Part shown: one piece after another, positions 2,574-63,045 of the stretch | Numbering within the stretch: position 1 is the stretch's first letter | Layout: each line of letters begins with the position of its first letter | Assembly (NCBI GenBank): GCA_944323745.1 | Contig: CALUTQ010000001.1 | Location: forward strand, 484,863-548,862 | Reading direction: 5' to 3' | From: Candidatus Avelusimicrobium pullarium | Lineage (GTDB): Bacteria > Elusimicrobiota > Elusimicrobia > Elusimicrobiales > Elusimicrobiaceae | Length of the DNA stretch: 64,000 bases | The notes under the pieces: generated by a model | Databases searched by the model: none | Seen by the model: the letters and a program-made list of their open reading frames with translations, nothing else | Told to the model about the DNA's origin: nothing | Position numbers and translations under genes: made by a program

Positions 2574-2634
2574 AGGGCTTGATTTGTTTTTTTTTTTTGA
2601 TAAATTTTGCCTATGAGCAAAATTTATCAAAAAA
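2574..2634 (+). promoter_or_regulatory. conserved pilin-paralog leader element, copy A (T12 + 17-bp inverted repeat around the ATG)
   Basis: AGGGCTTGATTTG + T12 + GATAAATTTTG + CCTATGAG + CAAAATTTATC + A6. Left arm 2593-2609 is the exact reverse complement of right arm 2618-2634. The ATG at 2613 lies in the 8-nt spacer. Confidence 0.7.
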
Positions 2635-3236
2635 CCTTGTCCAATACAAAAGGCGCTGTAGAACGCAAATTAGGTAGTTTTGGCCCTGCTGTTTCTGCCG
2701 TACCGGTCTGTGCAAATTCCCGCCCGTTTGGCCGATGCGGTTTTACGTTAATTGAGCTTTTGGTGGTAGTGCTGATTATCGGCATCTTGGCGGCCGTGGC
2801 TTTGCCGCAATATCAGCGGGTGGTAGATAAAACGCGTTTGAGCCAGGTGTTTGTTTGGGCTGCGCCTATTATGCAGGCAGAAAAGATATATCAAATGGCC
2901 AACGGCACATATACGCCCTATATGGAAGATTTAGACATTACGCCTCCTAATTGTAAGTTTAAAAATATAACTTACGAGGATAAAGGGGGAAGAGGAAGGT
3001 ATGGCTGTAATGATAACTGGACGGTAGATTTAAATGCTTGGCAGAACCTGTTACATATTTATTTGCCCAGCCAAGACCCTGTTGACGCTACCGTGGAGTT
3101 AGTATTTTATTTAGATACAGATAGCGTTCTCTGCGGTTCAACCTCTCAGCGCTGGAGAAACGTGTGTGCTTCTTTTGGCGGGCAGATATATAGTGATAAT
3201 GGTTCTATGCAATACTGGACTATTCCGCAAAATTAG
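2613..3236 (+). CDS. prepilin-type N-terminal cleavage/methylation domain protein (type IV pilin-like paralog A, 43-aa leader)
   Basis: G|FTLIELLVVVLIIGILAAVALPQY class III signal motif at residues 43-67, counting from the ATG at 2613. The ORF track starts at a TTG at 2607. Cys-containing divergent C-terminal domain. Confidence 0.8.
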   Translation: MSKIYQKTLSNTKGAVERKLGSFGPAVSAVPVCANSRPFGRCGFTLIELLVVVLIIGILAAVALPQYQRVVDKTRLSQVFVWAAPIMQAEKIYQMANGTYTPYMEDLDITPPNCKFKNITYEDKGGRGRYGCNDNWTVDLNAWQNLLHIYLPSQDPVDATVELVFYLDTDSVLCGSTSQRWRNVCASFGGQIYSDNGSMQYWTIPQN

Positions 3237-6580: not shown

Positions 6581-6822
6581 TGGCCTTATTTGCTTCTTTA
6601 AACGGCGGAGAACGGCGGAAAAGGGAACTTGCAGTATGCCCTCACAGTCGGTGCCTGCCCGCCTTTTGGGGCCGTTTTCAATAAACTTCAAAAATCCGCC
6701 CACATATTTAGCCTGCAGCGGCATTGGGGCATATTGCACAGGCCAAACAGCCTGGCAAATTAGTTAGCGCCGGCCTCCGTATGGAGTTGGCCAGTTGCAT
6801 TTATTTGAAAACACAAACACAT

Positions 6823-6855
6823 AAAAAACCCCGCTCTTTGGAGCGGGGTTTTTAT
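6823..6855. terminator. bidirectional rho-independent terminator (ends the oadGAB operon on the minus strand)
   Basis: A6-CCCCGCTC-TTTG-GAGCGGGG-T5. Near-identical to the terminator at 11499-11529. Confidence 0.75.
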
Positions 6856-6869
6856 TGTAAAACTTGCAA

Positions 6870-9843: not shown

Positions 9844-10074
9844 TTACTTGCCTTGAAATCTTTTTGCCGCCGCAATGGCAATAGCTACCAGGCTGTTATC
9901 AGCAGCGGCAGCCGCCGGTTGGGCAACGGTTTGCGGAAAATACTTTTCCAGCACCTTCACCAGCCACGCCAATAAGTGCATTACTCCCACCATAATGATG
10001 AGGAATACAAACACTATCAGCATACCGATGATGGTGATTACAACGCTTTGCATAATAAGACTTTCTGCGCTCAT
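9844..10074 (-). CDS. oadG: oxaloacetate decarboxylase gamma subunit (small membrane anchor)
   Basis: 76-aa protein with a single TM helix and an Ala-rich linker. Positioned directly upstream of oadA. Confidence 0.6.
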   Translation of the reverse strand: MSAESLIMQSVVITIIGMLIVFVFLIIMVGVMHLLAWLVKVLEKYFPQTVAQPAAAAADNSLVAIAIAAAKRFQGK

Positions 10075-10772
10075 ACCATCATATCTCCTATTGATATTTC
10101 CGTCAGTCCCTGCGGCGTTTGCAACACTAATTTGCCTTCGGGGGAAATGGTTTGCACAATGCCTTGTGCGTCAACTGCGCCGTTTTTTATCTGCACGGCT
10201 TTGCCCACATAGGGAAAGCGCTGCAAATACGCGGTGCGAATTACTTCAAATCCGTTTTCAAGCACGTCTTTATATTGTTTAAAAAATCGGGTGAGAATGC
10301 CTTCCAACACGGCTTGCGGCGTGGTGTTAATGCCCAGCATTTTTAGCGATACGGCCGGCTGGCCCACGTTTAAACTTTCCTGCAAAACATTTACGCCCAC
10401 GCCGATAATGAGCGCCTGCGGGCCTTGGCTGTTTGTTACGGCCTCGCTGAGCATACCGCATATTTTTTTGCCGTCGGCATATACGTCGTTGGGCCACTTA
10501 ATAAAAGTATTGGCGCCCAGCTCTTGCAAAGTGCTGCAAACGGCCAGCGCCATCAGTTGTGTTAAATTGGGTAAAAACTGCAGGTGGGCATCTTTTAGCA
10601 ATAGGGAAAAATACAGGCCCCCTTCGTCGGAAATAAACTTTCGGTTCAGTCTGCCTCTGCCGGCGGTTTGAACCGAAGCCGTAACGACGGAGTGATTGGC
10701 CAAACGTTCGTAATTGTTTTTTGTGTACGTGTTGGTAGAGTCCAACGCGTCAAAATGGCTAATCTCCCACAT
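10071..10772 (-). CDS. birA: biotin--[acetyl-CoA-carboxylase] ligase (group I, no HTH domain)
   Basis: 233 aa. GRGRLNRKF biotin-binding loop, KWPNDV motif. Its stop overlaps the oadG start (ATGA at 10071-10074). Confidence 0.8.
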   Translation of the reverse strand: MWEISHFDALDSTNTYTKNNYERLANHSVVTASVQTAGRGRLNRKFISDEGGLYFSLLLKDAHLQFLPNLTQLMALAVCSTLQELGANTFIKWPNDVYADGKKICGMLSEAVTNSQGPQALIIGVGVNVLQESLNVGQPAVSLKMLGINTTPQAVLEGILTRFFKQYKDVLENGFEVIRTAYLQRFPYVGKAVQIKNGAVDAQGIVQTISPEGKLVLQTPQGLTEISIGDMMV

Positions 10773-10830: not shown

Positions 10831-10891
10831 AGGGCTTGTATTGTTTTTTTTTTTTGATAAATTTTGACTATGACAAAATTTATCAAAAAAA
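10831..10891 (+). promoter_or_regulatory. conserved pilin-paralog leader element, copy B
   Basis: AGGGCTTGTATTG + T12 + GATAAATTTTG + ACTATGA + CAAAATTTATC + A7. Arms at 10850-10866 and 10874-10890. ATG at 10870 lies in the 7-nt spacer. Confidence 0.7.
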
Positions 10892-11490
10892 GAACATTCC
10901 GTCTGCAAAACCCTGCTGGCGGCAAATTAAGCGGGTTTACGCTTATCGAACTTTTGGTGGTGGTGCTGATTATAGGCATCTTGGCGGCTATTGCCTTGCC
11001 GCAGTATGAAAAAGCCGTAGCAAAAGCCAAAGTGGCTGAAGTGCTGCCTTGGTTTAAAAAAATAAAAGAAGGACGCGATTTATATTTAATGAACGGTGGC
11101 AACAGCAGTTGTATGGACTTGGGCCGCTATATGGCTGCGTTGGGGATAGACGCCCGAACCCGTTGCTCCGGCACAAATGTGGACGGTTTGTGCGAAAATG
11201 AGAACAGCTGGTGCGACAGCACCTTGTATGTAGACGACAAGACAACTATTCTTAATCATACGGGGCACGCCCGTTACTCATATAAAAAGAATAAGGGGCA
11301 GGCCACTTCTGACTTTGATATTTTGCTGCTTACGTATATCCGCGGCTATACGTCTGATGAAAAAACAGGCGATTTGTTCTGCCGCCCCAACACGGAATGG
11401 GGGGATAGTATGTGCCGGCAGTTTGCTTCATCTCCCTCCTCCGTAAGGTGTGACTATTCTGCCAAAACGTGTTACCGAATGGATTTATAA
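10870..11490 (+). CDS. prepilin-type N-terminal cleavage/methylation domain protein (pilin-like paralog B, 22-aa leader)
   Basis: G|FTLIELLVVVLIIGILAAIALPQY motif. Cys-rich divergent C-terminal domain. ATG at 10870 (track start is a TTG at 10864). Confidence 0.8.
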   Translation: MTKFIKKRTFRLQNPAGGKLSGFTLIELLVVVLIIGILAAIALPQYEKAVAKAKVAEVLPWFKKIKEGRDLYLMNGGNSSCMDLGRYMAALGIDARTRCSGTNVDGLCENENSWCDSTLYVDDKTTILNHTGHARYSYKKNKGQATSDFDILLLTYIRGYTSDEKTGDLFCRPNTEWGDSMCRQFASSPSSVRCDYSAKTCYRMDL

Positions 11491-11498
11491 AAACAGTT

Positions 11499-11529
11499 AA
11501 AAACCCCGCTCTTTTGAGCGGGGTTTTTT
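11499..11529. terminator. bidirectional rho-independent terminator (pilin B / pdxA)
   Basis: A5-CCCCGCTC-TTTT-GAGCGGGG-T6. Differs from the 6823 copy only in the loop. Confidence 0.75.
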
Positions 11530-12521: not shown

Positions 12522-13769
12522 TTATTTTTTGGCGTCGCTTTTTTCAGCTTTGGCTTCGGCCTTTTTGTCTGCTTTGGCGTCTTGTTTATCCGCCTTGGCG
12601 GCTTTGTCGGCTTCGGCTTTGGCTTCGTCTGCGGCGCGTTTGGCGGCTTCGGCTTCTATTTGCGCGTCTACTTCAAAGGTTTTGGTTACTTTGATGTCAG
12701 CTTTATCGGCCAATCCGTTAACATATTCGGCCATTGCCGTTTGAATTTTTTGCTGTGCCACATATTGGGCCAAATCTTGGGCGATGTCTTCGTAGCCGAT
12801 TTCTTTTTCGGCGCGTTTCTCTTTTACTTTGATGATATGCCAGCCGATGTCGGTTTTAATCGGCTCGCTTACTTTGCCTACGGGCAAAGAGAAAGCGGCC
12901 TCATCTATTTCTTTGGGGGCAATGCCCTTGATTAAAATCATATCGCCGCCGCTGGCCAGCGCGGTTTTGTCTTCGGTGTATTTTTTGACCGCGGCGGAAA
13001 AGTCCATCCCGCCGTCCAATTCTTTTTTAATTTGTTTGGCCAGTTCTTCTTTTTTCTTGGCGTCTTCTTTAGAGGTGTCTTTGGTAACGGCCAAATAGAT
13101 GTGTCCCACGCGCACCTGTTCGGCGGAAAGCTGCGTCAGCTTGGCGGCAATCAGCTGTGCTTCGCGCAATTTGGCGGGGTCTTCCTTTTCCAGTTTTTTA
13201 AGGGCCTTGGTATTGTTTTTCATTGCCGCTTCCACATTGGCGTAAAGGGCTTTTACGTCGGCTTCTTCCACGGGTTTGACCGTGGCCTGAATTTGCGCTT
13301 CCATCAATTTTTTGACGGCAATGTCTTTTTTAATTTTTTCTTTGTAAGACTTGAGGGTCATATGCTGTTTTTTAAGCGCTTCGTTAAAGCGTTTGTCGGC
13401 TCCTTTCGGGTCCTGCTTGCCGTTGTCGTCAATGATAAAGCGGGTTTTGATTTCATTTATGCCTTCGTCCACTTCGGAATCTTTCACCACAATTTTGGCT
13501 TCATCTGCGGCCTGATACAGCAGTTCTTTGGAAATAAGTTCTTTAAGCACCTCTTTGCCCAAGAAATCTTTGGCATAAGGTTGCTCCAAAAACTGCGGCG
13601 CCGCCGCCTGATACTGTTCAATAACGCCTTCGTAATAGGTGTCATATTCCGAGGCCAAAACGGGCTTGCCGTTTACCGTAGCGACGGAAGATTCCAACAC
13701 TTTCCCCTGGGCGCCGGCGGCCAGACATAAAGCCAGCACCGGCAGTAAAAATCTATTCATCTTGTTCAT
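12522..13769 (-). CDS. SurA-like periplasmic chaperone / PpiC-type peptidyl-prolyl isomerase with Lys/Ala/Glu/Asp-rich C-terminal tail
   Basis: Signal peptide MNRFLLPVLALCLAAGAQG. The start is M16 or M19 of the track ORF. Parvulin domain (GGDMILIKG...IGWHIIKV). Low-complexity tail of ~47 aa. Confidence 0.75.
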   Translation of the reverse strand: MNKMNRFLLPVLALCLAAGAQGKVLESSVATVNGKPVLASEYDTYYEGVIEQYQAAAPQFLEQPYAKDFLGKEVLKELISKELLYQAADEAKIVVKDSEVDEGINEIKTRFIIDDNGKQDPKGADKRFNEALKKQHMTLKSYKEKIKKDIAVKKLMEAQIQATVKPVEEADVKALYANVEAAMKNNTKALKKLEKEDPAKLREAQLIAAKLTQLSAEQVRVGHIYLAVTKDTSKEDAKKKEELAKQIKKELDGGMDFSAAVKKYTEDKTALASGGDMILIKGIAPKEIDEAAFSLPVGKVSEPIKTDIGWHIIKVKEKRAEKEIGYEDIAQDLAQYVAQQKIQTAMAEYVNGLADKADIKVTKTFEVDAQIEAEAAKRAADEAKAEADKAAKADKQDAKADKKAEAKAEKSDAKK

Positions 13770-14598
13770 AAATAACCACCTTATATTTATTTTGCAAAGC
13801 ATTGAGTGCTGCATCCGTTTTTTGGTTTTCCAAAATGGTGCGGATGCGCGGGACGGCCTCTTTTAACGAGAGGCGTTTTTCCCGCGTTTTCATTATTATA
13901 TGAAATCCCTGTGCGGTTTTGACAAACCCCTGCACGCTGCCGGTGGGGGAGTTAGCCGCAATGACTTCCAGCTCCGGTATAAATTCCCCGGGCATAAACG
14001 TGATTTCTTTGCCCTTGCTTTGTTCGGGAGCTTTGGAATATTGGCGCTCCAAGTCTTTCCACCGGCCTTTGGAACGTTTGAGTTCCCGCCAGACGGCGTC
14101 GGCCGTTTGGGCGTCGGGGATGATGATTTGCTTAATGGTCATTTCATAGGGGTATTTATCGTAATAGGCGGCAATTTCTTCGTCCGTGACGGAAGAAATG
14201 CCCTTTTCCTGCAGGCTTTCTTCCCATAAACGGCCCAAAAGCAGGTCGGAATATTCCTTATAAATGTCTTCCAGCTGGGCGCGTTTGTCATCCATTGCGG
14301 TTAAATAGACGTCTGTCTGATCCAAGCCTTCGTCTTTTGCGTCTAAGGCAATCAGCTGTTCGCGCACCAATAGGTTAATAAAGTTGCGCCGTCCGACGGA
14401 CGTTTTGGCAAAGGCCTGATCTTCTTTGGAAAGCACAGCCAAGCGGTTATCCAGTTGTTGCTGGGTAATGGAAACGGGCCCCACTTTGGCCACCACCGTA
14501 TCGGCAGACACGGGGGCGTCGGCCGCGGCTGGCGCGGGTGTTTTTTCACAGGCGGCAAGCAAACAAAAGGCTAAAAGCAAAAAAGGAAATTTCTTCAT
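13753..14598 (-). CDS. PpiC/parvulin-type peptidyl-prolyl isomerase lipoprotein (PrsA/SurA-like)
   Basis: Lipobox LLAAC. Parvulin-like C-terminal domain (MPGEFIPELE...AQGFHIIM). Sits 3 nt downstream of mfd. Confidence 0.7.
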   Translation of the reverse strand: MKKFPFLLLAFCLLAACEKTPAPAAADAPVSADTVVAKVGPVSITQQQLDNRLAVLSKEDQAFAKTSVGRRNFINLLVREQLIALDAKDEGLDQTDVYLTAMDDKRAQLEDIYKEYSDLLLGRLWEESLQEKGISSVTDEEIAAYYDKYPYEMTIKQIIIPDAQTADAVWRELKRSKGRWKDLERQYSKAPEQSKGKEITFMPGEFIPELEVIAANSPTGSVQGFVKTAQGFHIIMKTREKRLSLKEAVPRIRTILENQKTDAALNALQNKYKVVIYEQDE

Positions 14599-17799: not shown

Positions 17800-19932
17800 C
17801 TAAAAACTGGTGGGCTGGGTGCCTTTTTTAAATGCTTCCAAAAATTTATTCGGGTCGGTAGGCGTAGCCAGTTTGCCCGTGTTGGGGTTGATGTAGGCAA
17901 AGGAAATACCTTCCGGCACGGGGAAGTCGTCCTTGGGTTCGTCCTTTAAAATTTGCTCCATAATGTCAGTCCACCAACGGGCGGTGGTGCTGCCCTGCCA
18001 TTGGTATTTTTCTTGCGAGGTGTCGTCGTCATAGCCCATCCAGGCGGCTGCGGCAATACGCGGGGTCATACCCACAAACCACATATCGCGGTGGCTTTGG
18101 GTGGTGCCGGTTTTGCCGGCCAGCGGGCGGCCCAAACGGCTGGCGGCGCGGCCGCTGCCGTTTTGCACGACGCCCTTCATCATATTAATAAGCAAAAAGG
18201 AATCTTGCGGGGTAAAAGCTTCACTTTCCTGCGGGATGTGTTCTTCCAAAATGCGGCCGTTGTTGTCTTCCACGCGTTCAATGTAATAGTTGTCTGTGTG
18301 GATGCCGCCGTTGGCAAACGTAGTCAGCGCGGCCAAATGTTCATCCATATGCAGCACATTTACGCCCAGCGCCAAGGCCGGCACATTGGGCAGCGGGCCG
18401 GTAAGGCCGGCTTTGCGCGCCACATTGATTACTTTGCGCGGGCCGATGGCGTCAATTAAGTTGACGGCCACCAAATTTTTTGACTTTTCCAAGGCGCGGC
18501 GCAGGGTAATCCAGCCTTCGTTGCGGCCGCCCAGGTTTTGCGGTGCCCATACGTTAAAAGATTTATTGGCAATAAAAGACTGGGAGGCTAACTCCAGCGA
18601 ATATAAATCGGCATTTTCGTCAAATGTATGCCAGTTGCGCCCGTCAAAATAGAACATACTGGGCAGGTCTTTTACCAGTGTAGCCGGCGTATAGCCCTGC
18701 TGCAGGGCCGCCATCCACACATAAGGTTTAAAGGAAGAACCCGGCTGGCGGTTGGCTTGCGTGGCGCGGTTGAATTTGCTGTCTGTAAAGCTGCGCCCGC
18801 CAATCAGCACGCGCACGGCGCCGCTTTTTACGTCGCGCACCATAAAGGCGCCCTGCAAACGCGGAAAGTCCGGCAATTCTTCTCCTTCGGTGTTGGGGTC
18901 TTCGGCTTCTACTTTGTCCACTTCGGCGTCGGGGTCTTCGGGTTCAATTTCTATGCCCAAGCCTTTGGCCACCACCATATCCAACTCGTTGAGCTTTTGG
19001 TTCATAATTTCTTCGGCAATGGCTTGTTGGTCAATGTCTACGGTGGTATAAATGTTTAAGCCGCCTTTCCACAAAGTTTCCGTGCCGTATTTGGGCTCTA
19101 AAATACGCCGCACCTGTTCAATAAAATACAGGCCCGGTTTTTCGCCTTCCGGCGTGGGTTCTTTTTCAGGCAGCGGCTCTGCCTTGGCGGTTTCCAAATC
19201 TTCTTTGGTGATATAGCCCTGTTCGTACATTACCTGCAGCACCAAATCGCGCCGCGCTTTGGCGCGTTCGGGGTTGGCAAAGGGGTTATAGTTGCCGGGG
19301 GAAGGAATGAGCCCCACGATAAGGGCCGCCTCGCCGGTGGTAAGTTCGGACAGTTCCTTGTTAAAATAGCGTTTGGCCGCGGCCTTTACGCCATAGGCCC
19401 CGCTGCCGAGGTAAATTTCGTTTAAATACAGCTGCAAAATTTCCGGCTTGCTGAAACGGTGTTCTATTTGCACGGCCAAAATAATTTCGCGTATTTTGCG
19501 GATAATCTTTTTCTGCTGGGTCAAAAACACACCGCGCGAAAGCTGCTGCGTAAGCGTAGAGCCGCCCTGCTTGGCGCTGCCGCTTAGAACGTCGTGCATT
19601 AAAGCGCGCAGAATGCCGCGTACGGAAAAACCGGCGTGTTCAAAAAAGTCGCGGTCTTCCATAGCTACCACGCCGTTTTGCAGGTCTACGGGAATTTCTT
19701 CCAGCGGCACCATACTGCGTTTTTCTATGGAAAATTCGTGAATAAGCTTGCCGTTGCGGTCAAAAACTTTGGTGGTTAAAGAGGGGGTATATTCCTCCAT
19801 TTCATAGACGGGAGGAATGCCCGAAAAAATGTAGCGCATAAATACCGCGCCGCCGATAATGCATACAAAAAGCCCGGCCAGGACGCAGTATAAAAAGAAT
19901 TTGGATGTTAAAAATTTGCCTATATTTCTCAT
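17800..19932 (-). CDS. penicillin-binding protein 1A (bifunctional glycosyltransferase/transpeptidase)
   Basis: GT51 motifs EDRDFFEHAGF, GGSTLTQQ, RKIREI. Transpeptidase motifs SSFKP, SKN, KTGTT. The likely start is MRNIGKF (ATG at 19932), downstream of the track start at 20013. Confidence 0.85.
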   Translation of the reverse strand: MRNIGKFLTSKFFLYCVLAGLFVCIIGGAVFMRYIFSGIPPVYEMEEYTPSLTTKVFDRNGKLIHEFSIEKRSMVPLEEIPVDLQNGVVAMEDRDFFEHAGFSVRGILRALMHDVLSGSAKQGGSTLTQQLSRGVFLTQQKKIIRKIREIILAVQIEHRFSKPEILQLYLNEIYLGSGAYGVKAAAKRYFNKELSELTTGEAALIVGLIPSPGNYNPFANPERAKARRDLVLQVMYEQGYITKEDLETAKAEPLPEKEPTPEGEKPGLYFIEQVRRILEPKYGTETLWKGGLNIYTTVDIDQQAIAEEIMNQKLNELDMVVAKGLGIEIEPEDPDAEVDKVEAEDPNTEGEELPDFPRLQGAFMVRDVKSGAVRVLIGGRSFTDSKFNRATQANRQPGSSFKPYVWMAALQQGYTPATLVKDLPSMFYFDGRNWHTFDENADLYSLELASQSFIANKSFNVWAPQNLGGRNEGWITLRRALEKSKNLVAVNLIDAIGPRKVINVARKAGLTGPLPNVPALALGVNVLHMDEHLAALTTFANGGIHTDNYYIERVEDNNGRILEEHIPQESEAFTPQDSFLLINMMKGVVQNGSGRAASRLGRPLAGKTGTTQSHRDMWFVGMTPRIAAAAWMGYDDDTSQEKYQWQGSTTARWWTDIMEQILKDEPKDDFPVPEGISFAYINPNTGKLATPTDPNKFLEAFKKGTQPTSF

Positions 19933-40297: not shown

Positions 40298-41218
40298 TTA
40301 TTTAAAATAGTCTCTCGGATTGACGGGACGGCCGTCTTTCCATACTTCATAATGCAGGTGGGTGCCCGTGCTGCGCCCCGTGGTGCCCATAAAAGCAATT
40401 TGCTGGCCGCGTTTGACCACGTCGCCCGGTTTTACTTTAATGCCGGTGGCGTGCGCATACAGGGTGGAATAACCGAAACCGTGGTCAATTAAAACGGCCT
40501 GACCGTATCCGTTCACCCAGCCGGTGTGCCGCACGACGCCGTCCGCCGTAGCCAAAATGGGGCTGTCGGGCTTGCCGGCAAAGTCTAACCCGTTGTGCAT
40601 ATGACCGATAGGCTGGCCAAACGGGTCGCGGCGGTAGCCAAAGCCGGAGCTGATGCGCGCAGACGAAGGCCGGATAGAGGGCGTGGAATGCAGCCCTTCG
40701 CGGCGGTTGGCATAGTACCAGGCAATTTCCTGAAAAGAGGCCAGCCGCTGCTGTGCCGTATCCTGCATTGTGTTGATGTATTTTTCAAATTCTTCCGTAT
40801 CAAAATCTTTTAAATCGGAAGAAAACAGTTCTTTGGCCCGTTCGTCTTCTTTTTCCTGCAGGCCTTTGGGCAAATTGATAAATTTACCGCCGGGCATACC
40901 CAGCATTTGGCGCATTTGCTGTTCGGTGGTTTGGGTTAAATTTAAATAATTGCGCCCGCGTTCCAATTCTTCGGCAATCAGCTTCATTTTAACGCGCATA
41001 ATTTCGTTGTCGGCTTTTGTTAAATGGTAATCATAGGCGCGGCTCCACAGCCACAGCGCCCCCAACGTTAAAGCCAGCCAAGCCAGCAACAGCAATACCA
41101 GCGTCAAACCGGATAATTTAAATTTTCTGGATACGCCGGCCCGCGGCATCAAAATGATGTCTACCCTGTCGCTTAAAAATCTGTTTAACGCATTAATCTT
41201 TTTGCCCATCCTTTTCAT
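40298..41218 (-). CDS. M23 family metallopeptidase (LytM-like) with N-terminal TM and coiled coil
   Basis: HMHNGLDFAG (HxxxD) and GTHLHYEV (HxH) motifs. Confidence 0.85.
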   Translation of the reverse strand: MKRMGKKINALNRFLSDRVDIILMPRAGVSRKFKLSGLTLVLLLLAWLALTLGALWLWSRAYDYHLTKADNEIMRVKMKLIAEELERGRNYLNLTQTTEQQMRQMLGMPGGKFINLPKGLQEKEDERAKELFSSDLKDFDTEEFEKYINTMQDTAQQRLASFQEIAWYYANRREGLHSTPSIRPSSARISSGFGYRRDPFGQPIGHMHNGLDFAGKPDSPILATADGVVRHTGWVNGYGQAVLIDHGFGYSTLYAHATGIKVKPGDVVKRGQQIAFMGTTGRSTGTHLHYEVWKDGRPVNPRDYFK

Positions 41219-41260
41219 TTTATCATATTGGGCTTACTCTTCGGCTGTTTACCCTGCGCA

Positions 41261-45156: not shown

Positions 45157-45573
45157 ATGAAAAAAGGCTTTACGGTAATAGAAATTGTTGTCACGCTGCT
45201 TGTGTTTGCGCTGCTTCTTGGCCTGACGGTGCCCAAGTTCATTACGCTGGTGAATAAAGCCCGTGAAGGCAGCACCAAACATCAGCTGGTGCGTCTGCGC
45301 AGCGCCATTGCCGCCTATTACGGCGAAAATCAGGGCGTCTATCCGACCGATAACCTGACCAGCCTGGTGCCCACGTATATAGAGGCCATTCCGCAGGTCA
45401 ATGTGCCGGGGCTGCCCAAAACCAACAAGGTAACCGCCGGCAATTATGAAGCGGCTTTTACCAAGACCGGCGGCTGGGCATACGTCAATGATCCGGCCGA
45501 CCCGCGCTTTGGCGACGTGTTTGTAAACACGGATAAAGAAGACAGCTACGGCAAAGCCTGGAATACCCATTAG
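45157..45573 (+). CDS. type IV pilin / pseudopilin with canonical short leader
   Basis: MKKG|FTVIEIVVTLLVF class III signal (4-aa leader, Glu5). Directly upstream of the prepilin peptidase gene. Confidence 0.8.
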   Translation: MKKGFTVIEIVVTLLVFALLLGLTVPKFITLVNKAREGSTKHQLVRLRSAIAAYYGENQGVYPTDNLTSLVPTYIEAIPQVNVPGLPKTNKVTAGNYEAAFTKTGGWAYVNDPADPRFGDVFVNTDKEDSYGKAWNTH

Positions 45574-46421: not shown

Positions 46422-46458
46422 AAAAACAGCGTTTTTGTAAAAACGCTGTTTTTTTTAA
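46422..46458 (+). terminator. rho-independent terminator after pilD
   Basis: AAAAACAGCGTTTTT-GT-AAAAACGCTGTTTTT followed by a T run. Confidence 0.75.
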
Positions 46459-46490: not shown

Positions 46491-46551
46491 AGGGCTTGTA
46501 TTGTTTTTTTTTTTTGATAAATTTTGTTTATGAACAAAATTTATCAAAAAA
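46491..46551 (+). promoter_or_regulatory. conserved pilin-paralog leader element, copy C
   Basis: AGGGCTTGTATTG + T12 + GATAAATTTTG + TTTATGAA + CAAAATTTATC + A6. Arms at 46510-46526 and 46535-46551. ATG at 46530. Confidence 0.7.
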
Positions 46552-47048
46552 GAAGGATAATACATACAAATTGTTTACAACGCAAATTTGCGGGCTTTAC
46601 ATTGATTGAGCTTTTGGTTGTAGTGTTGATTATTGGTATCTTGGCAGCAATAGCTTTGCCTCAATATCAAAAAGCCGTTTTTAAATCTTGTGCGACGGAA
46701 GGGTATTTGTTGTTTGAGAAGGTAAAAGACGCACAGGAAATGTATAAAATGGAAACCGGAACCTATAGCCAAGATGCCGCAGCCTTAATTTTATCTTTTC
46801 CGAAAGGCCATTCTTCCGATTATGATATTCTGTCTTGCGGGGAGGGATTTTGTTTGCTGCGTTTTACCGAGAGACCCTGTCGTATGAGTTGGGAATATCG
46901 TTGGTATAACAGTGATGCTAGTTTATGGTGTCTTGCTTATAGTAGTTCCGTGCAGGAATATGCCGCTCAATTCTGTGAAGAAAAAGGCTATGTATATTCT
47001 CGTACAAGTACTGCGGGAACATTGTATTATGAACTGCCGGAGAAATAG
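46530..47048 (+). CDS. prepilin-type N-terminal cleavage/methylation domain protein (pilin-like paralog C, 22-aa leader)
   Basis: G|FTLIELLVVVLIIGILAAIALPQY motif. Cys-containing divergent C-terminal domain. Confidence 0.8.
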   Translation: MNKIYQKRRIIHTNCLQRKFAGFTLIELLVVVLIIGILAAIALPQYQKAVFKSCATEGYLLFEKVKDAQEMYKMETGTYSQDAAALILSFPKGHSSDYDILSCGEGFCLLRFTERPCRMSWEYRWYNSDASLWCLAYSSSVQEYAAQFCEEKGYVYSRTSTAGTLYYELPEK

Positions 47049-47113: not shown

Positions 47114-47146
47114 AAACCCCGTTTGATTTTTCAAACGGGGTTTTTT
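47114..47146 (+). terminator. rho-independent terminator after pilin paralog C
   Basis: AAACCCCGTTTGA-TTTTT-CAAACGGGGTTT followed by a T run. Confidence 0.75.
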
Positions 47147-56625: not shown

Positions 56626-56795
56626 TTTTACTCCATAATAAGGGGATAAAGTTTGCGGCAGGGACTGCCGTAACTTATAAAGTTTATCAAAAAAATACTT
56701 GACCCTCAAATAAGAACGACGATAAACGGGTTTTATTTTTCAAACCGTTTTCAATTTGATATAATTTATATACTTCCTAAGGACAAACCTGTTTT

Positions 56796-56882
56796 GGAGA
56801 GGTGGCCGAGCGGTTTAAGGCACAGTCCTGGAAAGACTGCATACGGGAAACCGTATCGAGAGTTCGAATCTCTCCCTCTCCG
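56796..56882 (+). tRNA. tRNA-Ser (anticodon GGA)
   Basis: Hand-folded. Acceptor GGAGAGG/CCUCUCC. Anticodon stem CAGUC/GACUG with loop CUGGAAA. Long variable arm AUACGG-GAAA-CCGUAU. T-arm GAGAG-UUCGAAU-CUCUC. Discriminator G. Confidence 0.9.
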
Positions 56883-56908
56883 TATTTTAGTTTTGCTTTT
56901 CTTACAAC

Positions 56909-56950
56909 AATCCCCGTTCGGGTCATCTCCCGACGGGGATTTTCTTTTCT
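56909..56950 (+). terminator. terminator after tRNA-Ser
   Basis: AATCCCCGTTCGGG-N7-CCCGACGGGGATT (one bulge) followed by TTTCTTTTC. Confidence 0.7.
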
Positions 56951-57038
56951 ACAACCCATAGCATATACTTTTTGGCGGATTTTTCCGTTTTACGGACTTT
57001 TTTATAATTTTATGCTGTCTTTTTATTGAGGAAGTTGT

Positions 57039-58643
57039 TTAACGAAAGAAGATTTCTTCCTGTTCCCGCCAGTTTGGCGTATGTATAGATAGTAAATGTT
57101 TGAGGGTACAATCTGCAGGCTGCTTGCCTATTAATATGGCCCGTATGATTTTTGGCGATAAAAAACTTAGTGCAAGGATTCGCCGTACATATTGTTCGGA
57201 TACTTTCTCCCTTTCGGATACCTCTTTGAACGTTCTTCCAGTTAATATATCTTGGTGCCATTTGTAGGCTTGTGCCAAAATCTTGATAAGGTTCGTTTCT
57301 TTATGGGGAGTGGGTTTAATCACCTCTCCTACTAGCACTTTAGCCCCATTGTCTATAACGCCAATATGATAATTTTCTGTATAGGAACATCCCTTGCTAG
57401 ATTGTAATAAACGCATTTCCCTGTTTTCATAGAGTGCGTTTAACAGTTCCGTTACTTGTTCTTCGTGTATAGTGATTTTGATGTGTCTTTGGGATATATC
57501 CACCCGCTTGATAAGGGATTGTTCTATGTTTCGGGTGATTGTATAGGAAGTAAGTCTATTTATAATTCCCTTCTGTTTCGCAATATCAAAACCTTTAAGA
57601 TAGGGATATATTTTGGCCTTATCCCGTATAAACTGGGCGAACCAGTTATCTATAAATTCTTCCAGTTTGGGTAAGGATATCTTACTTATTTGCCCTATTT
57701 TACTAGGTTCCTTCTTAATAACCGCTTGGCTGACATAATAGCGGTATTTCTTCCCCTGGCTCCCCGTACTCCAACTGGGGCTCATTATGTTGCCTTTATC
57801 ATCATATAACTTCCCTGCCAAAAGGCTTTTACTGGAGTTATAATGCTGCCGGTTGATACGGTTGCTGTTCATAACCGCTTGGGCTTGGTTAAATAGTCCT
57901 ATTGGGATTATGCCTTGGTGTTCCCCCTGGTACCATATACCCTTATGCCCTACCTGCCCTATATAGGCTTTATTACGTAAGATACAGTTTAAGTTCCCAA
58001 CAGATATAGGGTGGCCTTGTTTATTTAACCACTCTTTTACAAGTGTGGTACTTTTGAGTTCAACATACTTTTTGAATATACTATTAACAAGTTTTACTTT
58101 TTCTTCATCCGGATATATCTTTTTATCTTTGCGGTAATACCCGAGTGGCGGTTTGCCGCCCATCCACATACCTTTTTTCTTGCTAGCGGCGATTTTATCC
58201 CTTATACGCTCCCCGGTTACTTCCCGCTCAAATTGGGCAAATGATAATAACATATTGAGTGTTAACCGCCCCATACTGGTAGTGGTATTAAAATGCTGTG
58301 TGATAGATACAAAAGACGCGTTATGTTTATCCAATACCTCTACAATTTTGCTAAAGTCCATTAAACTGCGGGTTAATCGGTCTATTTTATATACCACAAT
58401 TATATCTATAAGCCCAGCCTTGATATCCGATAATAATTGCTGTAAAGCAGGTCTGTTTAATGTACCGCCAGAGTATCCGCCATCATCATAATGGGTAGGT
58501 AATAACTGCCAAATTTCGTGCTTTTGACTTTTTATATAGGCTTCGCACGCCTCCCGCTGGGCCTGCAAACTGTTAAATTCAAGTTCTAGGCCTTCCTCAC
58601 TGGACTTGCGTGTATAGATGGCACACCGTATTTTAGTTTTCAT
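57039..58643 (-). CDS. large serine recombinase (resolvase/invertase N-domain + recombinase + zinc-ribbon region)
   Basis: 534 aa. N-terminal CAIYTRKSS (catalytic Ser context), DGGYSGGTLNRPALQ, VVYKIDRLTRS. Confidence 0.85.
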   Translation of the reverse strand: MKTKIRCAIYTRKSSEEGLELEFNSLQAQREACEAYIKSQKHEIWQLLPTHYDDGGYSGGTLNRPALQQLLSDIKAGLIDIIVVYKIDRLTRSLMDFSKIVEVLDKHNASFVSITQHFNTTTSMGRLTLNMLLSFAQFEREVTGERIRDKIAASKKKGMWMGGKPPLGYYRKDKKIYPDEEKVKLVNSIFKKYVELKSTTLVKEWLNKQGHPISVGNLNCILRNKAYIGQVGHKGIWYQGEHQGIIPIGLFNQAQAVMNSNRINRQHYNSSKSLLAGKLYDDKGNIMSPSWSTGSQGKKYRYYVSQAVIKKEPSKIGQISKISLPKLEEFIDNWFAQFIRDKAKIYPYLKGFDIAKQKGIINRLTSYTITRNIEQSLIKRVDISQRHIKITIHEEQVTELLNALYENREMRLLQSSKGCSYTENYHIGVIDNGAKVLVGEVIKPTPHKETNLIKILAQAYKWHQDILTGRTFKEVSEREKVSEQYVRRILALSFLSPKIIRAILIGKQPADCTLKHLLSIHTPNWREQEEIFFR

Positions 58644-59019
58644 TTTTCACCCCAAAGAATACTTTGCCGTTCCAACTTTTACCTGTTATCTCCTTGGCAA
58701 TCCCCGATAGGCTTTTGTATTGTTTGCCGTTGTATAAGTAGCCATTAGAGATAACTTCTACTGTATGGATAACTCCCTTATAAGAACGCGTGATTTTAGA
58801 GCCGGCTTCCAAGATAACAGTGTTTTTATTAGCCGACATAGAAGCCTGTTTAACCTCATTAAAAAAGCCAAGGGAAGAAATCTTCTCCCGCTTGGCTTGT
58901 TCATACCAAATTAGATATTTAATGATTAGGCTGCGACGAATTGGCGGTATCGACCGGTTGATTACTTCTGTCCATTTGGCACGCAACTGCTGAACAGTAC
59001 AATGTGTATAGTCAGTCAT
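58633..59019 (-). CDS. DUF2924-family protein (common partner of large serine recombinases)
   Basis: C-terminal GKQYKSLSGIAKEITGKSWNGKVFFG and LRAKW...IKYLIWYEQ patterns. 11-nt overlap with the recombinase start. The start is M7 (59019) or 59037. Confidence 0.6.
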   Translation of the reverse strand: MTDYTHCTVQQLRAKWTEVINRSIPPIRRSLIIKYLIWYEQAKREKISSLGFFNEVKQASMSANKNTVILEAGSKITRSYKGVIHTVEVISNGYLYNGKQYKSLSGIAKEITGKSWNGKVFFGVKNEN

Positions 59020-59123
59020 ATCCCCTCCTATACACATTACGGCTTACTAGGGCCTAGAAGTCAAGTACAACAACATAAAAGACATATAAGTTCGATTCCT
59101 GTTGAGCGCACTTTTCAAAATAT

Positions 59124-59155
59124 ACCCGTTCTCCATCGAGAGCGGGTTTTTTCTT
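59124..59155 (+). terminator. intrinsic-terminator-like hairpin inside the island
   Basis: ACCCGTTCTC-CATC-GAGAGCGGGT followed by T6. On the reverse strand it is followed by the weaker ATATTTTG. The transcript it terminates is unknown. Confidence 0.55.
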
Positions 59156-59162
59156 ATACTCC

Positions 59163-59460
59163 CTCGTCGACACTTTTTGAGCAAAATGAGCAAAATTACG
59201 CAAATCTTGTATATTCTTAGTGGACCCTCTATGGTGTACAGTAAATGCTAGTTTTCTTTGTGTTTCTCGTCGACAAAATCTAAATTATATACACTTTTTC
59301 CGCAAACTATATCCGCACAACCTAAATTTCCGAAAATTTTTGTCATACTATAATTATTACTTCTCGTCGAGGAAGTCCAAAAACTACTAAAACTTCTTCG
59401 CAAAACTATGAATATACTGGGCACAGTTTGGACACTATAACCGCGTGGTTTTTTCGGTTA
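59163..59460 (+). repeat. three degenerate ~100-bp direct repeats with a bipartite core (CTCGTCGA ... CGCAAA)
   Basis: CTCGTCGA at 59163, 59266 and 59363. CGCAAA(A)(T)CT at 59199, 59301 and 59399, a fixed 35-36-nt offset. Periods are 103 and 97 nt. No ORF. Confidence 0.6.
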
Positions 59461-59616
59461 CTGGTTTGCCATTTCTTGGGCTTTTATTATGCCTTGTGCG
59501 CTTTTTGGGCACAATAACATAAGGGAGAAATGTGTTATTCGGAGAGGATATACAAAGAGAAATGATATGTTATACAATTTGATAGTAATACATGTAGTGA
59601 CCACAAAATATTTAAT

Positions 59617-60423
59617 ATGAAATTTGCATTGGTTAATAATGAAAGATGCGAGCCAACACCTAAAGCAAAAGGAATTTGTCCTGTTTGTAATGAGGTGGTT
59701 ATTGCCAAATGTGGAAAATTAAAAGCTCATCATTGGGCTCACAAAATAAAGCAAAATTGTAGAAATGATAGATGGGAAACCGAAGGCGAGTGGCATAGAA
59801 ATTGGAAAAATAGGTTTCCCATAGAATGCCAAGAGAAAATTATCCTTATCAATGGCGAGAAAAATATAGCAGATGTCCAGACTGACAAAGGACTTGTTAT
59901 AGAATTTCAACATTCTCATTTGACCCCTGAAGAACAAAAAGCTAGGGAAAATGCTTATAAGGACATGATATGGGTTGTGGATGGAACAAGATTAACATAC
60001 GACTTTCCACGATTCCAAAAAAACATAAAACATAATTCCGTATTGTTCTTGAAAATTAGGAAAAATATAAAATTATTCTGTGTATATTTTTGTGATGAAG
60101 TATTCCCTAAAAATTGGACGAATTGTACTGTCCCGGTAGTTTTTGATTTTCTCGGTCTTGAAGATGAAGAAAAAGCCAACGTTTTTCAAAGATACTTATA
60201 TTTTTTATTACCACGAACTAAAGTTAAAGAAAGTGATACCTCTACTTTCCTACTATACCTTCCTAGAAAAGACTTTCTCCCTCTAATTAATAGTGATTGG
60301 GAGTCATTTTACACCGAACTAATATCAAGTATTATCAAAATACAAAAAGCAAAGAGAGAAAATGCACCTCAACCAGTTGTTTATTATGGCTATAGACGTA
60401 GACTCAGAAGGAGCATCTTTTAA
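59617..60423 (+). CDS. CoiA-like nuclease family protein (N-terminal half); C-terminal half uncharacterised
   Basis: CPVCNEVV...KAHHWAHK zinc-finger-like segment, EGEWHRNWK, NIADVQT...VIEFQHS (PD-(D/E)XK-like core, as in competence protein CoiA). AT-rich. No obvious RBS. Confidence 0.55.
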   Translation: MKFALVNNERCEPTPKAKGICPVCNEVVIAKCGKLKAHHWAHKIKQNCRNDRWETEGEWHRNWKNRFPIECQEKIILINGEKNIADVQTDKGLVIEFQHSHLTPEEQKARENAYKDMIWVVDGTRLTYDFPRFQKNIKHNSVLFLKIRKNIKLFCVYFCDEVFPKNWTNCTVPVVFDFLGLEDEEKANVFQRYLYFLLPRTKVKESDTSTFLLYLPRKDFLPLINSDWESFYTELISSIIKIQKAKRENAPQPVVYYGYRRRLRRSIF

Positions 60424-60444
60424 AGCTTGAAGGCGCGGATTGAT

Positions 60445-63042
60445 CTAAGATATGGTTTCCATATCGGCATTGAATTCTTGCATGCGAACTTCTTTATTAA
60501 AGAAGTGAAAGCCCCATATTTTATAATTATTATCATCAACGAAAGTAGTCACTGGCACAGCTTTCGACTTAAGTTCCAATAGAAAATTTTCCTTCCATTT
60601 GTCATTTTCAATTAAATGACTTCCTTTGGGCTCTATAAAAATTTGTAATTGTTCATATCCTTCCTGCTTTTTTGAATGCAAGAAAAGAACATAATCGGGC
60701 TCGAAACGTTCTCCGGCTTCAAACGAGTAAATGTGAAGTTGCCGCTCGTTCCGAATTAAATATACCTTGTCGTATCTCTTTCGCAATTGCGGCACATAGC
60801 CCTTAAAATAAGCAACGAATGCCTTCTCTTCGTTGGTACCAAAATTATCTTCAAACACATACCAATTTTCTCGTGAAAGATCTATTCTCCAAGCTGTTTG
60901 AACGGTGTTGTCATTCTGAGAAAATCCAAGACCACCGTCATGTACAATAGTATAATTGCACCGTTTATTCTTAAAAACCTTGGAAATATGTTCGGACCTA
61001 AATTCTTTTGTTCCCTCGTAGATTTCTTCTATTTCAGAAATGCTATCTGCAATTTTGCCAACTACATTTACGCAGGCAGCAAATAGAATTTCAATGGATG
61101 GCTTTTCATGTGGAGACACTATTTCTATACGGACAGCCCCCATATAATTACTGTCCTCGATAAATTCACGGGTTGATTTTAGATTCGGGAAATAGCTACG
61201 AAGAATATTAAATTTCAATACATTATACTTACAAACAGCTTTATGCACGATATTGTAGTTGATTCTTGCGATGTCACCAATAGTAGTACGGTAGGTATAA
61301 GTATCGACCGTATGTTCCATGTTTTCAGGTGCACCAAAAATCGTATCTTCTCCTGAGCTACCAGTCGCAAAACGAACTGAGTACACATGCTCACGTACCG
61401 ATGGAAGAAGCCCTGTGACATCATTCCTCCCTTTTAGAACACGAGTGTTTGTAAAAACGAGGCCTTCACGATATAGCAAATCCTTTTTAAAATCTTCCTT
61501 CAATACATATTCGCGCACGACAACATTTTCTATATCAACCCCGATTTCGCGAAGTGCATTATTTAATTCACCAATATAACGGCTATCATTCTGACAGTGA
61601 TAATACAATTCCTCACAAATGCGAAGATCATTGTCAATATCGGCATCATATTTTCGTTTATACTTTTCTTGTTCGGGATCTACTTGGAATGGGCAGTATC
61701 TTGCACCACGTCCAATTAGCTGGGCTTCGGAAACCGTCGCTGGCGAAATCTTTTTACCACCTGACTGACGAGTTTCGTAAAGGCGCACTATATCAAATAG
61801 ATTTAGGACATCCCAACCTTCATCAAGTTTATTGACTTCAAAGATGGCACGATAAGGATTGTTTGAATCTTCAAGGTGATTAAGTGCTAATTGCCGCGTT
61901 TCAGCTTCTTTTTCATCGTTTGCTGAAATACAATGCTCCGCACTGAAATCATCACGCAATTCCTGTGCCAATTGATCGTAGGAAATGCCATTTTTTTCAA
62001 AGTAGATATACGCTTCTTTCAATGTATTATTATCAGTCAATTTAGAAATACGGCGAAGCTCATCCCCGCTCAGATTGCAGACTGTTTCGATAAACTGTGC
62101 CATAAAAGCTTTACTATCGGCTATCCTATGGGATTTAAACAATACAACAGGTTTTATAAAAATACGATGATCTTGGAAAACTTTCAACCGATACTGACTG
62201 AGCATAATAGCCTGTATCGCCCTCTCCATAATAGACACATCTGTGCGGAGTGTTTTAATCTCTTTTGAGTATCCATCGGCTCTGAATTTAGAAAGTGGAT
62301 AATCGTAAACAATTTTACTCTCGTATTCAGCTCTAATCTGTGGATTTTTTATATCACAAGTTGCCGTAAATTCCATCAGAACATTGTCCTTGTTCGTTTC
62401 AAAAATACGACGAACTGTTTGTTCCCAGCTATGATAACTTTCCTGTTCCTCTTTATTCTTTTCGAGTGTTTTTGTATCCACATTCAAGTGATGTGCTTCA
62501 TCTGAAATAAGGACAATTTTTTGTCCGTTAAAATCGTCGAAGGAGATAGAATTTTCTTTGGCAGCCCACATGTCCGAATGGAGTCCTTGTATGGTCGTAA
62601 AACAGATATTGATGGCACTTTCATCAACATACTGAAAATTGGTAACTTCCTTGATGGGGATACGTTCACCATTAATCCGGATTTCATTGGCAAATAAATA
62701 TTTTTGCGAAAGCGGATTTAAAAAATTCTCTTTCGTTTTTTTAACAATGTTTGAGAGATTAACGAAGAATAGAAATTTGCGGTACCCTTTCTGATAGAGA
62801 TATAACATTAACCCTGCCATAATCATCGTTTTTCCGGAACCAGTTGCCATGTGAAAAAGTGTTTGCGTTGGCTTCTTACACATTTTAGTGTTTTCAAAAT
62901 ATGTAATGAAATTCTCAAACGCTGCGATTTGATATGGGCGGAGCGTAAATATTGGATTCACATTTTCTTGTATATATGCCGGTATTTCTGCAAACGCACC
63001 ATACTCTCGTAGCGTATCAAGTTGTTCGTAAAGAAACGGCAT
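60445..63042 (-). CDS. res: type III restriction endonuclease, Res subunit
   Basis: 865 aa. SF2 helicase motifs MATGSGKT and SDEAHH. C-terminal PD...EPK endonuclease motif (EPDYVLF...IFIEPKG). 3 nt downstream of mod. Confidence 0.8.
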   Translation of the reverse strand: MPFLYEQLDTLREYGAFAEIPAYIQENVNPIFTLRPYQIAAFENFITYFENTKMCKKPTQTLFHMATGSGKTMIMAGLMLYLYQKGYRKFLFFVNLSNIVKKTKENFLNPLSQKYLFANEIRINGERIPIKEVTNFQYVDESAINICFTTIQGLHSDMWAAKENSISFDDFNGQKIVLISDEAHHLNVDTKTLEKNKEEQESYHSWEQTVRRIFETNKDNVLMEFTATCDIKNPQIRAEYESKIVYDYPLSKFRADGYSKEIKTLRTDVSIMERAIQAIMLSQYRLKVFQDHRIFIKPVVLFKSHRIADSKAFMAQFIETVCNLSGDELRRISKLTDNNTLKEAYIYFEKNGISYDQLAQELRDDFSAEHCISANDEKEAETRQLALNHLEDSNNPYRAIFEVNKLDEGWDVLNLFDIVRLYETRQSGGKKISPATVSEAQLIGRGARYCPFQVDPEQEKYKRKYDADIDNDLRICEELYYHCQNDSRYIGELNNALREIGVDIENVVVREYVLKEDFKKDLLYREGLVFTNTRVLKGRNDVTGLLPSVREHVYSVRFATGSSGEDTIFGAPENMEHTVDTYTYRTTIGDIARINYNIVHKAVCKYNVLKFNILRSYFPNLKSTREFIEDSNYMGAVRIEIVSPHEKPSIEILFAACVNVVGKIADSISEIEEIYEGTKEFRSEHISKVFKNKRCNYTIVHDGGLGFSQNDNTVQTAWRIDLSRENWYVFEDNFGTNEEKAFVAYFKGYVPQLRKRYDKVYLIRNERQLHIYSFEAGERFEPDYVLFLHSKKQEGYEQLQIFIEPKGSHLIENDKWKENFLLELKSKAVPVTTFVDDNNYKIWGFHFFNKEVRMQEFNADMETIS

Positions 63043-63045
63043 TAT

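Follow-up and report, generated by a model that had tools for sequence, protein, structure and literature searches.

The DNA analysed here, referred to as the window, is a 64,000-nucleotide (nt) stretch of contig CALUTQ010000001.1 from Candidatus Avelusimicrobium pullarium. Three pilin-like genes in it have at their 5' end one copy each of a near-identical element on the plus strand (copies 1 to 3 at 2574-2634, 10831-10891 and 46491-46551). The window sequence gives the same layout for all copies: AGGGCTTG(A/T)(T/A)TTG, a run of twelve T (T12), GATAAATTTTG as left arm, a centre of 7 or 8 nt with an ATG, CAAAATTTATC as right arm and a run of six or seven A. The initial annotation of the window had described the three copies, their T12 and the inverted arms in the same way. 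The features are listed below, with promoter parts named as interpreted further on.

2579-2584 (+): putative -35 box TTGATT of copy 1, at the upstream edge of conservation
2587-2598 (+): T12 tract of copy 1, filling the putative 16-nt promoter spacer
2598-2609 (+): left arm of copy 1, putative extended -10 box TG-A-TAAATT plus TTG, of the same form as the tRNA promoters of the window
2610-2617 (+): central 8 nt of copy 1, CCTATGAG; the A of ATG (2613) is the predicted +1 and start codon
2618-2634 (+): right arm of copy 1, CAAAATTTATC plus A6, mirroring the left arm within codons of the leader peptide
2613-3236 (+): pilin-like gene 1, 207 amino acids (aa), 43-aa leader, GFTLIELLVVVLIIGILAA; PF07963, TIGR02532
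10836-10841 (+): putative -35 box TTGTAT of copy 2
10844-10855 (+): T12 spacer tract of copy 2
10855-10866 (+): left arm of copy 2, putative extended -10 box TGATAAATT plus TTG
10867-10873 (+): central 7 nt of copy 2, ACTATGA, with ATG at 10870
10874-10891 (+): right arm of copy 2 plus A7
10870-11490 (+): pilin-like gene 2, 206 aa; PF07963, TIGR02532
45610-46410: prepilin peptidase gene, with its terminator-like hairpin at 46422-46453
46496-46501 (+): putative -35 box TTGTAT of copy 3
46504-46515 (+): T12 spacer tract of copy 3
46515-46526 (+): left arm of copy 3, putative extended -10 box TGATAAATT plus TTG
46527-46534 (+): central 8 nt of copy 3, TTTATGAA, with ATG at 46530
46535-46551 (+): right arm of copy 3 plus A6
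46530-47048 (+): pilin-like gene 3, 172 aa, directly 3' of the prepilin peptidase gene; PF07963, TIGR02532

Searched as a gapped pattern, the dyad is present three times in the window and in none of 100 shuffled sequences, and the 17-mer arm occurs exactly six times, once per arm and copy. Among the short-range inverted repeats listed for the window, the three copies are found within the top four (18 nt, 100%; 21 nt, 95%; 32 nt, 88%). Upon alignment of the copies with 200 nt of flanking sequence, conservation opens at AAGGGCTTG and ends past the A run, and similarity returns only at the codons for GFTLIELLVVVLIIGILAA. Since the flanks cannot be aligned, the copies are not segmental duplicates, and the element is indeed, as the annotation had claimed, better conserved than the genes that follow it. 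The centre of copy 2 has 7 nt, which places the right arm in another reading frame (KFIKK, not KIYQK); it is therefore the DNA that is conserved, not the peptide. The ATG of the centre had been called the only canonical in-frame start of each gene. It is the only in-frame ATG, but an in-frame TTG, a start codon of translation table 11, precedes it by two codons in each copy. The pilin gene at 45157 lacks the element, as stated before, and has AAGGGG ahead of its ATG.

In copy 3 (46497-46564) the complementary sequence continues to 32 nt on either arm, up to the -35 box; the four mismatches of this pairing are all G.T on the plus strand, and the RNA stem is predicted at -32.6 kcal/mol. Among the three window copies, long pairing past the A run is confined to copy 3 and is far shorter in the other two. 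Between genes, at 46422-46453, 11499-11528, 47114-47143 and 6819-6858, there are terminator-like hairpins whose stems are preceded by A runs and followed by T runs. One of them directly precedes copy 3 and others follow copies 2 and 3, by which the pilin-like genes appear to be insulated as single-gene units. All three window proteins carry the cleavage/methylation motif G/FTLIE (cleavage at the slash) and a hydrophobic helix, as type IV pilins and pseudopilins do. Only the prepilin N-methylation domain was matched in them (PF07963 and TIGR02532, above cut-offs), and no specific pilin equivalog reached its cut-off for any of the three.

A scan for GATAAATTTTG-N6-9-CAAAATTTATC, with one genome per species, yielded at least 107 loci. 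At least 105 of these come from at least 22 Elusimicrobiales gut assemblies, including Candidatus Avelusimicrobium, while two further matches are due to chance. The dyad, whose search in related genomes the initial annotation had proposed, stands nearly always before prepilin-type genes, and sequence statistics establish this distribution of the family. One genome holds at least 19 dyad loci. The dyad-bearing assemblies were obtained from gut samples of chicken, of Hadza humans and of other origin; chicken-gut contigs match the window exactly, and a protein identical to pilin-like protein 1 is encoded on chicken-gut contigs. The ATG in the centre opens a prepilin open reading frame (ORF) at 78 of 116 sites and a downstream start does so at nine more; most of the remaining sites are cut by contig ends. 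These ORFs follow one plan: M-x-KIYQK, a leader of 15, 21 or about 44 residues, and then G/FTLIELL. With the same orientation in every case, the element occupies the 5' end of a pilin-like ORF and extends into the coding sequence, which led us to dismiss a miniature inverted-repeat transposable (MITE) or repetitive extragenic palindromic (REP) element.

Bins labelled 'Eggerthellaceae bacterium' (CAVHDF01) and 'Muribaculaceae bacterium' (CAVKWQ01) hold typical Elusimicrobia pilin promoters and genes; their taxon labels are probably wrong. The ends of metagenome contigs frequently fall within the element: at many loci the motif lies at most 40 nt from the contig end, and three contigs start 32 nt ahead of the ATG. 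As a repeat, the element breaks short-read metagenome assemblies.

The left half of the element reads as a sigma-70-type promoter. CTTGNN would be the -35 box, NG, T12 and GA would make up a 16-nt spacer, and the left arm would supply the extended -10 box TG-A-TAAATT. Across the sites, conservation begins about 6 nt ahead of the TTG, and -35-like hexamers follow (TTGATT, TTGCAT, TTGACT, TTGTAT and TTGCAC among the 116 sites). TTG and GATAAA are 17 nt apart in 76 of 108 scored sites, and they are still so in one genome where the run is T10 and the segment preceding it is 2 nt longer. The spacer up to TAAATT measures 16 nt, and a TGn directly precedes the TAnnnT hexamer. TG-A-TAAATT is present in all three window copies and exact in 103 of 143 sites from a wider scan anchored only on TTG-N3-8-T9+. 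The same extended -10 form precedes the two tRNA genes of the window (TTTGATATAAT and TTTGCTAAAAT). Moreover, TA at the predicted positions -1/+1 is kept in at least 90% of 75 unique 42-nt cores, even where the centre has no ATG, which fits a start site.

Eight of the 143 anchored sites form a second class of pilin promoters (class B; loci L002, L019, L050, L038, L041, L057, L067 and L076). They share the -35 box, have T10-13 and TGATAC(A/C)CT, that is an extended -10 box TACACT or TACCCT, and lack the right arm. Their 5' untranslated region comprises about 10-100 nt, in most cases with a purine-rich Shine-Dalgarno-like run (AAGGAG, AGGAG or AAGAGGAG), and leads to a pilin-like ORF with the short leader MKKG/FTLIELL. 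Given that class B does without the right arm, the -35 box, T tract and TGATA would constitute the promoter of the family, and the right arm would be the addition of one class.

Two other promoter assignments were rejected. A sigma-54 reading of GGCTTG..TTG does not fit in its GG-to-GC spacing, and the GG is often absent; a -10 box within CTTGNNNNG, by which the hairpin would be transcribed, is incompatible with the TTGACTCG class. At 56678-56694 on the minus strand, T7 plus GATAAACTTTA nearly repeats the left arm but has no partner arm; this sequence lies about 50 nt upstream of a minus-strand ORF that has GGAG as Shine-Dalgarno sequence, and is probably an ordinary promoter built in a similar way.

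Concerning the start of transcription, TGATAAATT is followed in the pilin copies by 6 nt and then by ATG. This leaves no room for a Shine-Dalgarno sequence, and the earlier in-frame TTG falls inside the promoter. The geometry was examined independently of the pilin genes with the stricter motif TGNTAWAAT, which leaves out the pilin hexamer TAAATT; over 825 kb of Elusimicrobiales DNA its distance was taken to ATGs that open an ORF of 100 aa or longer. Of 153 motifs, 22 stand exactly 6 nt before such an ATG, compared with five at 7 nt, six at 8 nt and zero to three at every other distance up to 40. From this clade-wide peak, leaderless mRNAs look common in the clade. Sequence statistics establish both the promoter anatomy and this leaderless geometry. 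Transcription would start about 7 nt past the -10 hexamer, at the A of the ATG, which most likely is the first base of a leaderless mRNA. We consider the reading as a promoter with a leaderless start to be probable. A leaderless mRNA explains the missing Shine-Dalgarno sequence without any hairpin. The contrast drawn earlier with most other genes of the window was overstated, as only 24 of 51 ORFs have a Shine-Dalgarno-like run before their first ATG; in a survey, only 46% of Elusimicrobia genes are listed with a Shine-Dalgarno sequence (PMC10783764).

In related loci, about 30 genes show an extended -10 box 6-7 nt before the ATG. In the window, the same arrangement is seen at four non-pilin genes, biotin ligase-like, peptidyl-prolyl isomerase (PPIase), PBP1-type and M23 peptidase, which are probably transcribed as leaderless mRNAs to judge by their promoter spacing:

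10071-10772 (-): non-pilin gene with the 6-nt layout, region to 10787
13753-14598 (-): non-pilin gene with the 6-nt layout, region to 14620
17800-19932 (-): non-pilin gene with the 6-nt layout, region to 19948
40298-41225 (-): non-pilin gene, extended -10 box 6-7 nt before the ATG

Dyad and start codon are separable. Two or more species have a centre that reads TATAGG, TATACT or similar, or whose ATG opens an ORF of only 9-11 codons; here AAGGAA or GGAAGG and the real ATG are found 13-17 nt past the right arm. A leadered copy with a 7-nt centre is also present on one 'viral' contig of IMG/VR (L149, 11372-11400), which may be an Elusimicrobia fragment or a prophage region. This single copy of the ordinary leadered type gives no ground for a phage origin of the element, which we rejected.

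With the predicted start site as reference, the right arm would extend from about +6 to +22 as a mirror copy of T6, extended -10 box and TTG, written into the disposable leader peptide (M-x-KIYQK). Both arms would make up a 42-bp two-fold symmetric, A/T-rich site from about -20 to +22, centred between +1 and +2. Its symmetry can be followed at the arm pair 2/10', which in the 75 unique cores is A-T in 52, G-C in nine, C-G in five, G-T in one and otherwise composed in eight, a covariation reached by none of 500 shuffles. The covarying position is the N of TGN, the sole base of the left arm free of promoter constraint. A scan of metagenomes for sites with a base other than A at left-arm position 2 gave about 27 real ones; 18 of them are complementary doubles (GCT..AGC, GGT..ACC), four are non-complementary doubles and five are singles. 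All three arm versions and the consensus coexist in one genome. The right-arm variant CGAAATTT, in which position 2 is G in place of A, is repeatedly found in the leadered clade (L025, L035, L117, L126, L129, L137 and L140).

The centre has 8 nt in 111 of 116 sites, also where no ATG constrains its length. Its first and last nucleotides are Watson-Crick partners in 46 of the 75 cores (30 expected), and in species without a loop ATG the centre is at times fully palindromic (CGTATACG, AGTATACT, AATATATT). On these sequence statistics, the palindrome itself is maintained. The fixed spacing of the half-sites suits a protein dimer better than a hairpin loop. Our best guess from the sequence is that the 42-bp dyad serves as operator for a dimeric regulator; by covering -10 box and start site, such a DNA-binding protein would repress all members of the family jointly. 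Thus the operator for coordinated expression, one of several possibilities named in the initial annotation, survives as a best guess, given a palindrome centred on +1/+2, fixed spacing and preserved symmetry.

Another of these possibilities was a translational or thermosensing hairpin with the start codon in its loop. If transcription began upstream of the left arm, the RNA would form a 17-19-bp A/U stem with the AUG in the loop, by which translation, the response to temperature or mRNA stability could be controlled. Folding, which had been proposed along with this idea, predicts a stable 42-nt core (-17.7 kcal/mol, z -8.5) and, for the RNA from the ATG onward, no structure (z +1.2). The compensated changes at one arm pair, the Watson-Crick extension at the edge of the loop and the extension of copy 3 to 32 pairs with four G.T mismatches speak for an RNA stem. 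So does the tolerance of T.G wobbles on the sense strand, where eight G.T mismatches stand against three A.C; as a test for RNA we set this strand bias aside, the numbers being too small, not significant and probably not independent. Against the hairpin, no conserved promoter-like sequence is found upstream of CTTG, the left arm matches an extended -10 box and has the proper distance to the -35 box, and the ATG follows the hexamer by exactly 6 nt, as in many unrelated genes of leaderless type. Class B promoters share the -35 box, T12 and TGATA and dispense with the right arm, and the loop is held at 8 nt and does not shrink. An RNA thermometer also fits poorly with an AUG that would lie in the loop and not be sequestered, with the species that have no loop AUG at all, and with the absence of an Rfam match. 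As a transcript starting at the loop ATG would not contain the left arm, we regard an RNA hairpin as unlikely. An intrinsic terminator was rejected as well: the stem is A/T-rich, with the T run ahead of it and the A run after it.

The symmetry could also act at the level of DNA, if the palindrome extruded as a cruciform under negative supercoiling or formed a hairpin on single-stranded DNA and thereby hid the -10 box, as a switch sensitive to supercoiling, or became a hotspot of recombination or gene conversion among paralogues. A DNA hairpin is predicted at -13.5 to -16.3 kcal/mol, and the maintained symmetry with its compensated doubles, the fully palindromic centres of some species and mixed arm types (GGT..AGC), which resemble exchanges within the centre, would agree with such a role. 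We find it doubtful nonetheless. There is no sign of rearrangement, orthologous loci being colinear and identical save for the T run; the centre is in most cases no palindrome, and extrusion is slowed by a spacer of 8 nt. Every gene has its own promoter, so that no silent-cassette logic is apparent, and template-switch repair in quasi-palindromes could make the arms symmetric without selection or function.

Alternatively, the right arm may be an extended -10 box of the bottom strand, at which RNA polymerase bound in reverse would compete with or tune the forward promoter and give rise to a short divergent transcript. Read on the bottom strand, the sequence is TTTTTTGATAAATTTTG, the same as the forward core; an extended -10 box without an obvious -35 box is seen at many promoters of the clade, and the 8-nt centre would place a purine after a pyrimidine at the reverse start as well. 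Bidirectional promoters are known with overlapping -10 boxes and divergent starts. The element differs from these in having two complete extended -10 boxes that face each other across a common start point, each downstream of the start of the other. Warman et al. (PMC12825309) document polymerase competition at symmetric E. coli promoters, where the symmetry likewise lets RNA polymerase engage in both orientations. Upstream of the element nothing conserved is available to be transcribed, the reverse unit has neither -35 box nor T12, and the covariation at the N of TGN, irrelevant to a promoter, would go unexplained. A mirror promoter is in our view not likely to account for the right arm.

The remaining part of the element is the T tract. 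The three T12 runs are the only runs of A or T of at least 9 (or of G or C of at least 8) in the 64 kb. The initial annotation had seen that the run is exactly T12 in each copy; promoter, leaderless start and variation in T length had not been considered. Among 113 sites the mode is T12 (66 sites) and the range T6-T16. Comparison of consensus assemblies revealed T9 and T12 at one locus pair with flanks 100% identical over 670 nt, and T11 and T12 at the orthologue pair of copy 2 with flanks 100% identical over 1300 nt; more distant orthologues have T8, T9, T11 and T11. At the level of consensus sequences, T-tract length is polymorphic. As in phase-variable promoters, the long homopolymer is placed where its length matters, between the -35 and -10 boxes, and its length differences at otherwise identical loci suggest a phase-variable spacer. 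T12 would set the spacing of the two boxes, and slippage would probably let single genes change their expression level or switch off.

Phase variation by slippage might even be the main function of the element, with the palindrome as a by-product, e.g. if the promoter core had been duplicated in inverted orientation and repair had kept it symmetric. In favour of this, the genes belong to a family of surface proteins of gut bacteria, T runs of at least 9 are restricted to pilin-like promoters (the three of the window and nearly all of the 143 anchored matches) and both promoter classes have them, and run length varies between copies and at loci with identical flanks. Arms that are identical in at least 22 species-level genomes, with a fixed loop length, are hard to explain without selection on the dyad, and T12 is stable at one locus in five assemblies. 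We judge slippage as the main function to be quite improbable. The same holds for a stochastic switch composed of the palindrome at +1 and T12, by which each of dozens of pilin-like genes would flip independently through slippage plus cruciform extrusion or arm exchange and create combinatorial surface variation; in such a switch, dyads with A-T, C-G or G-C at the covarying pair might each belong to a sub-regulon under its own control.

Taken together, we propose that the element forms the 5' end of the members of a large prepilin-type gene family in gut Elusimicrobiales and serves as their core promoter, with the right arm as operator and a slippage-prone T12. For this combined reading we would claim somewhat less than an even chance. 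Several points weigh against it. A simple promoter scan missed the site because its two hexamers score 8 of 12, below the threshold of 9, and the promoter is assigned by sigma-70 rules that may not be those of Elusimicrobia. Compensated changes in both arms are predicted by a nucleic-acid hairpin and not by a homodimer that reads its half-sites separately, and the recurrent A-to-G change of the right arm amounts to a T.G wobble on the sense strand opposite an unchanged left arm. Arm conservation is partly a product of site finding, since the search patterns fixed most arm positions, and the kinship of paralogues and strains inflates the counts of covariation. As to the T tract, the locus of copy 3 has T12 in five independent assemblies, and several of the metagenome contigs are of low coverage, where homopolymers may be miscounted.

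Apart from the pilin-like genes, the window ends in a low-GC island (56796-64000; 35-42% versus about 50%) that adjoins a tRNA gene (56796-56882). It encodes a large serine recombinase (57039-58643), DUF2924, a CoiA-like protein, and a type III restriction enzyme (60445-63042) with its methylase (63046-63840), and looks like an integrated mobile element with a restriction-modification system.

Gut Elusimicrobia are widespread in animals and humans and almost unstudied, and they have dozens of pilin-like genes. One well-conserved promoter module provides a sequence tag by which the whole pilin-like family can be found, and at the same time explains a practical nuisance, the breaking of metagenome assemblies inside the repeat. 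If leaderless translation is common in the phylum, this matters for gene calling, as start codons would be fixed by the promoter and not by a Shine-Dalgarno sequence. The element offers two candidate regulatory handles, the 42-bp palindrome over the start site and the slippery T12 spacer. Should the T tract indeed switch genes, Elusimicrobia would possess a contingency-locus system; to our knowledge, none is known in the phylum.

An Rfam scan of the window returned two tRNAs and no family for the element, and our literature searches on Elusimicrobia pilins and leaderless genes found no description of it, in line with the initial annotation, which had recognised no described motif. Fur, FNR/CRP, IHF and DnaA boxes do not appear to fit in spacing or sequence. 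Tyrosine recombinases act on core sites such as loxP, FRT, dif and the shufflon sfx, and shufflons act on pilin genes. The element resembles these sites in its 11-bp inverted arms round a centre of 7-8 bp. However, the 116 sites have 40 different centres, colinearity is kept between orthologous loci, and the element overlies a promoter; no recombinase adjoins the element copies examined, the only one of the window being the large serine recombinase in the unrelated island. On these grounds, neither a tyrosine-recombinase core nor the recombination or cassette boundary considered in the initial annotation is supported.

Extended -10 (TGn) promoters of the sigma-70 type with leaderless mRNAs are known from Actinobacteria and Deinococcus-Thermus. 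Like the element, they place TGnTAnnnT 6 nt before a 5'-terminal ATG and have no Shine-Dalgarno sequence; unlike them, the element adds a T12 spacer and a mirror copy of itself in the coding region. No report of this geometry in Elusimicrobia was found in the literature searched. The closest architectural analogue is CIRCE, the site of the heat-shock operon repressor HrcA, a perfect inverted repeat TTAGCACTC-N9-GAGTGCTAA at the transcription start, which likewise has a fixed spacer of about 9 nt and is conserved over many promoters and species. The arms of the element (GATAAATTTTG/CAAAATTTATC, 17 bp) are unrelated to CIRCE in sequence, by which identity with it was rejected; they overlap the -10 box and the start codon and serve a pilin-like family, and a repressor for them is putative.

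Homopolymers as promoter spacers are known from phase-variable surface-protein genes, namely the poly(A) of Mycoplasma hyorhinis vlp, porA and opc of Neisseria, and the poly(C) of Bordetella fim. The element shares with them a long homopolymer between the -35 and -10 boxes of many paralogues with a conserved 5' module, and, in the consensus assemblies compared, a tract length that differs between otherwise identical loci. It departs from them in a T12 tract with a strong mode that is joined to a leaderless start and a palindrome, and ON/OFF switching would here follow from tract length by analogy. Each ingredient of the element is thus of a known kind; new to us is their combination, a mirrored extended -10 box across a leaderless start, placed in a cleavable leader peptide, with T12, in dozens of paralogues per genome across an order.

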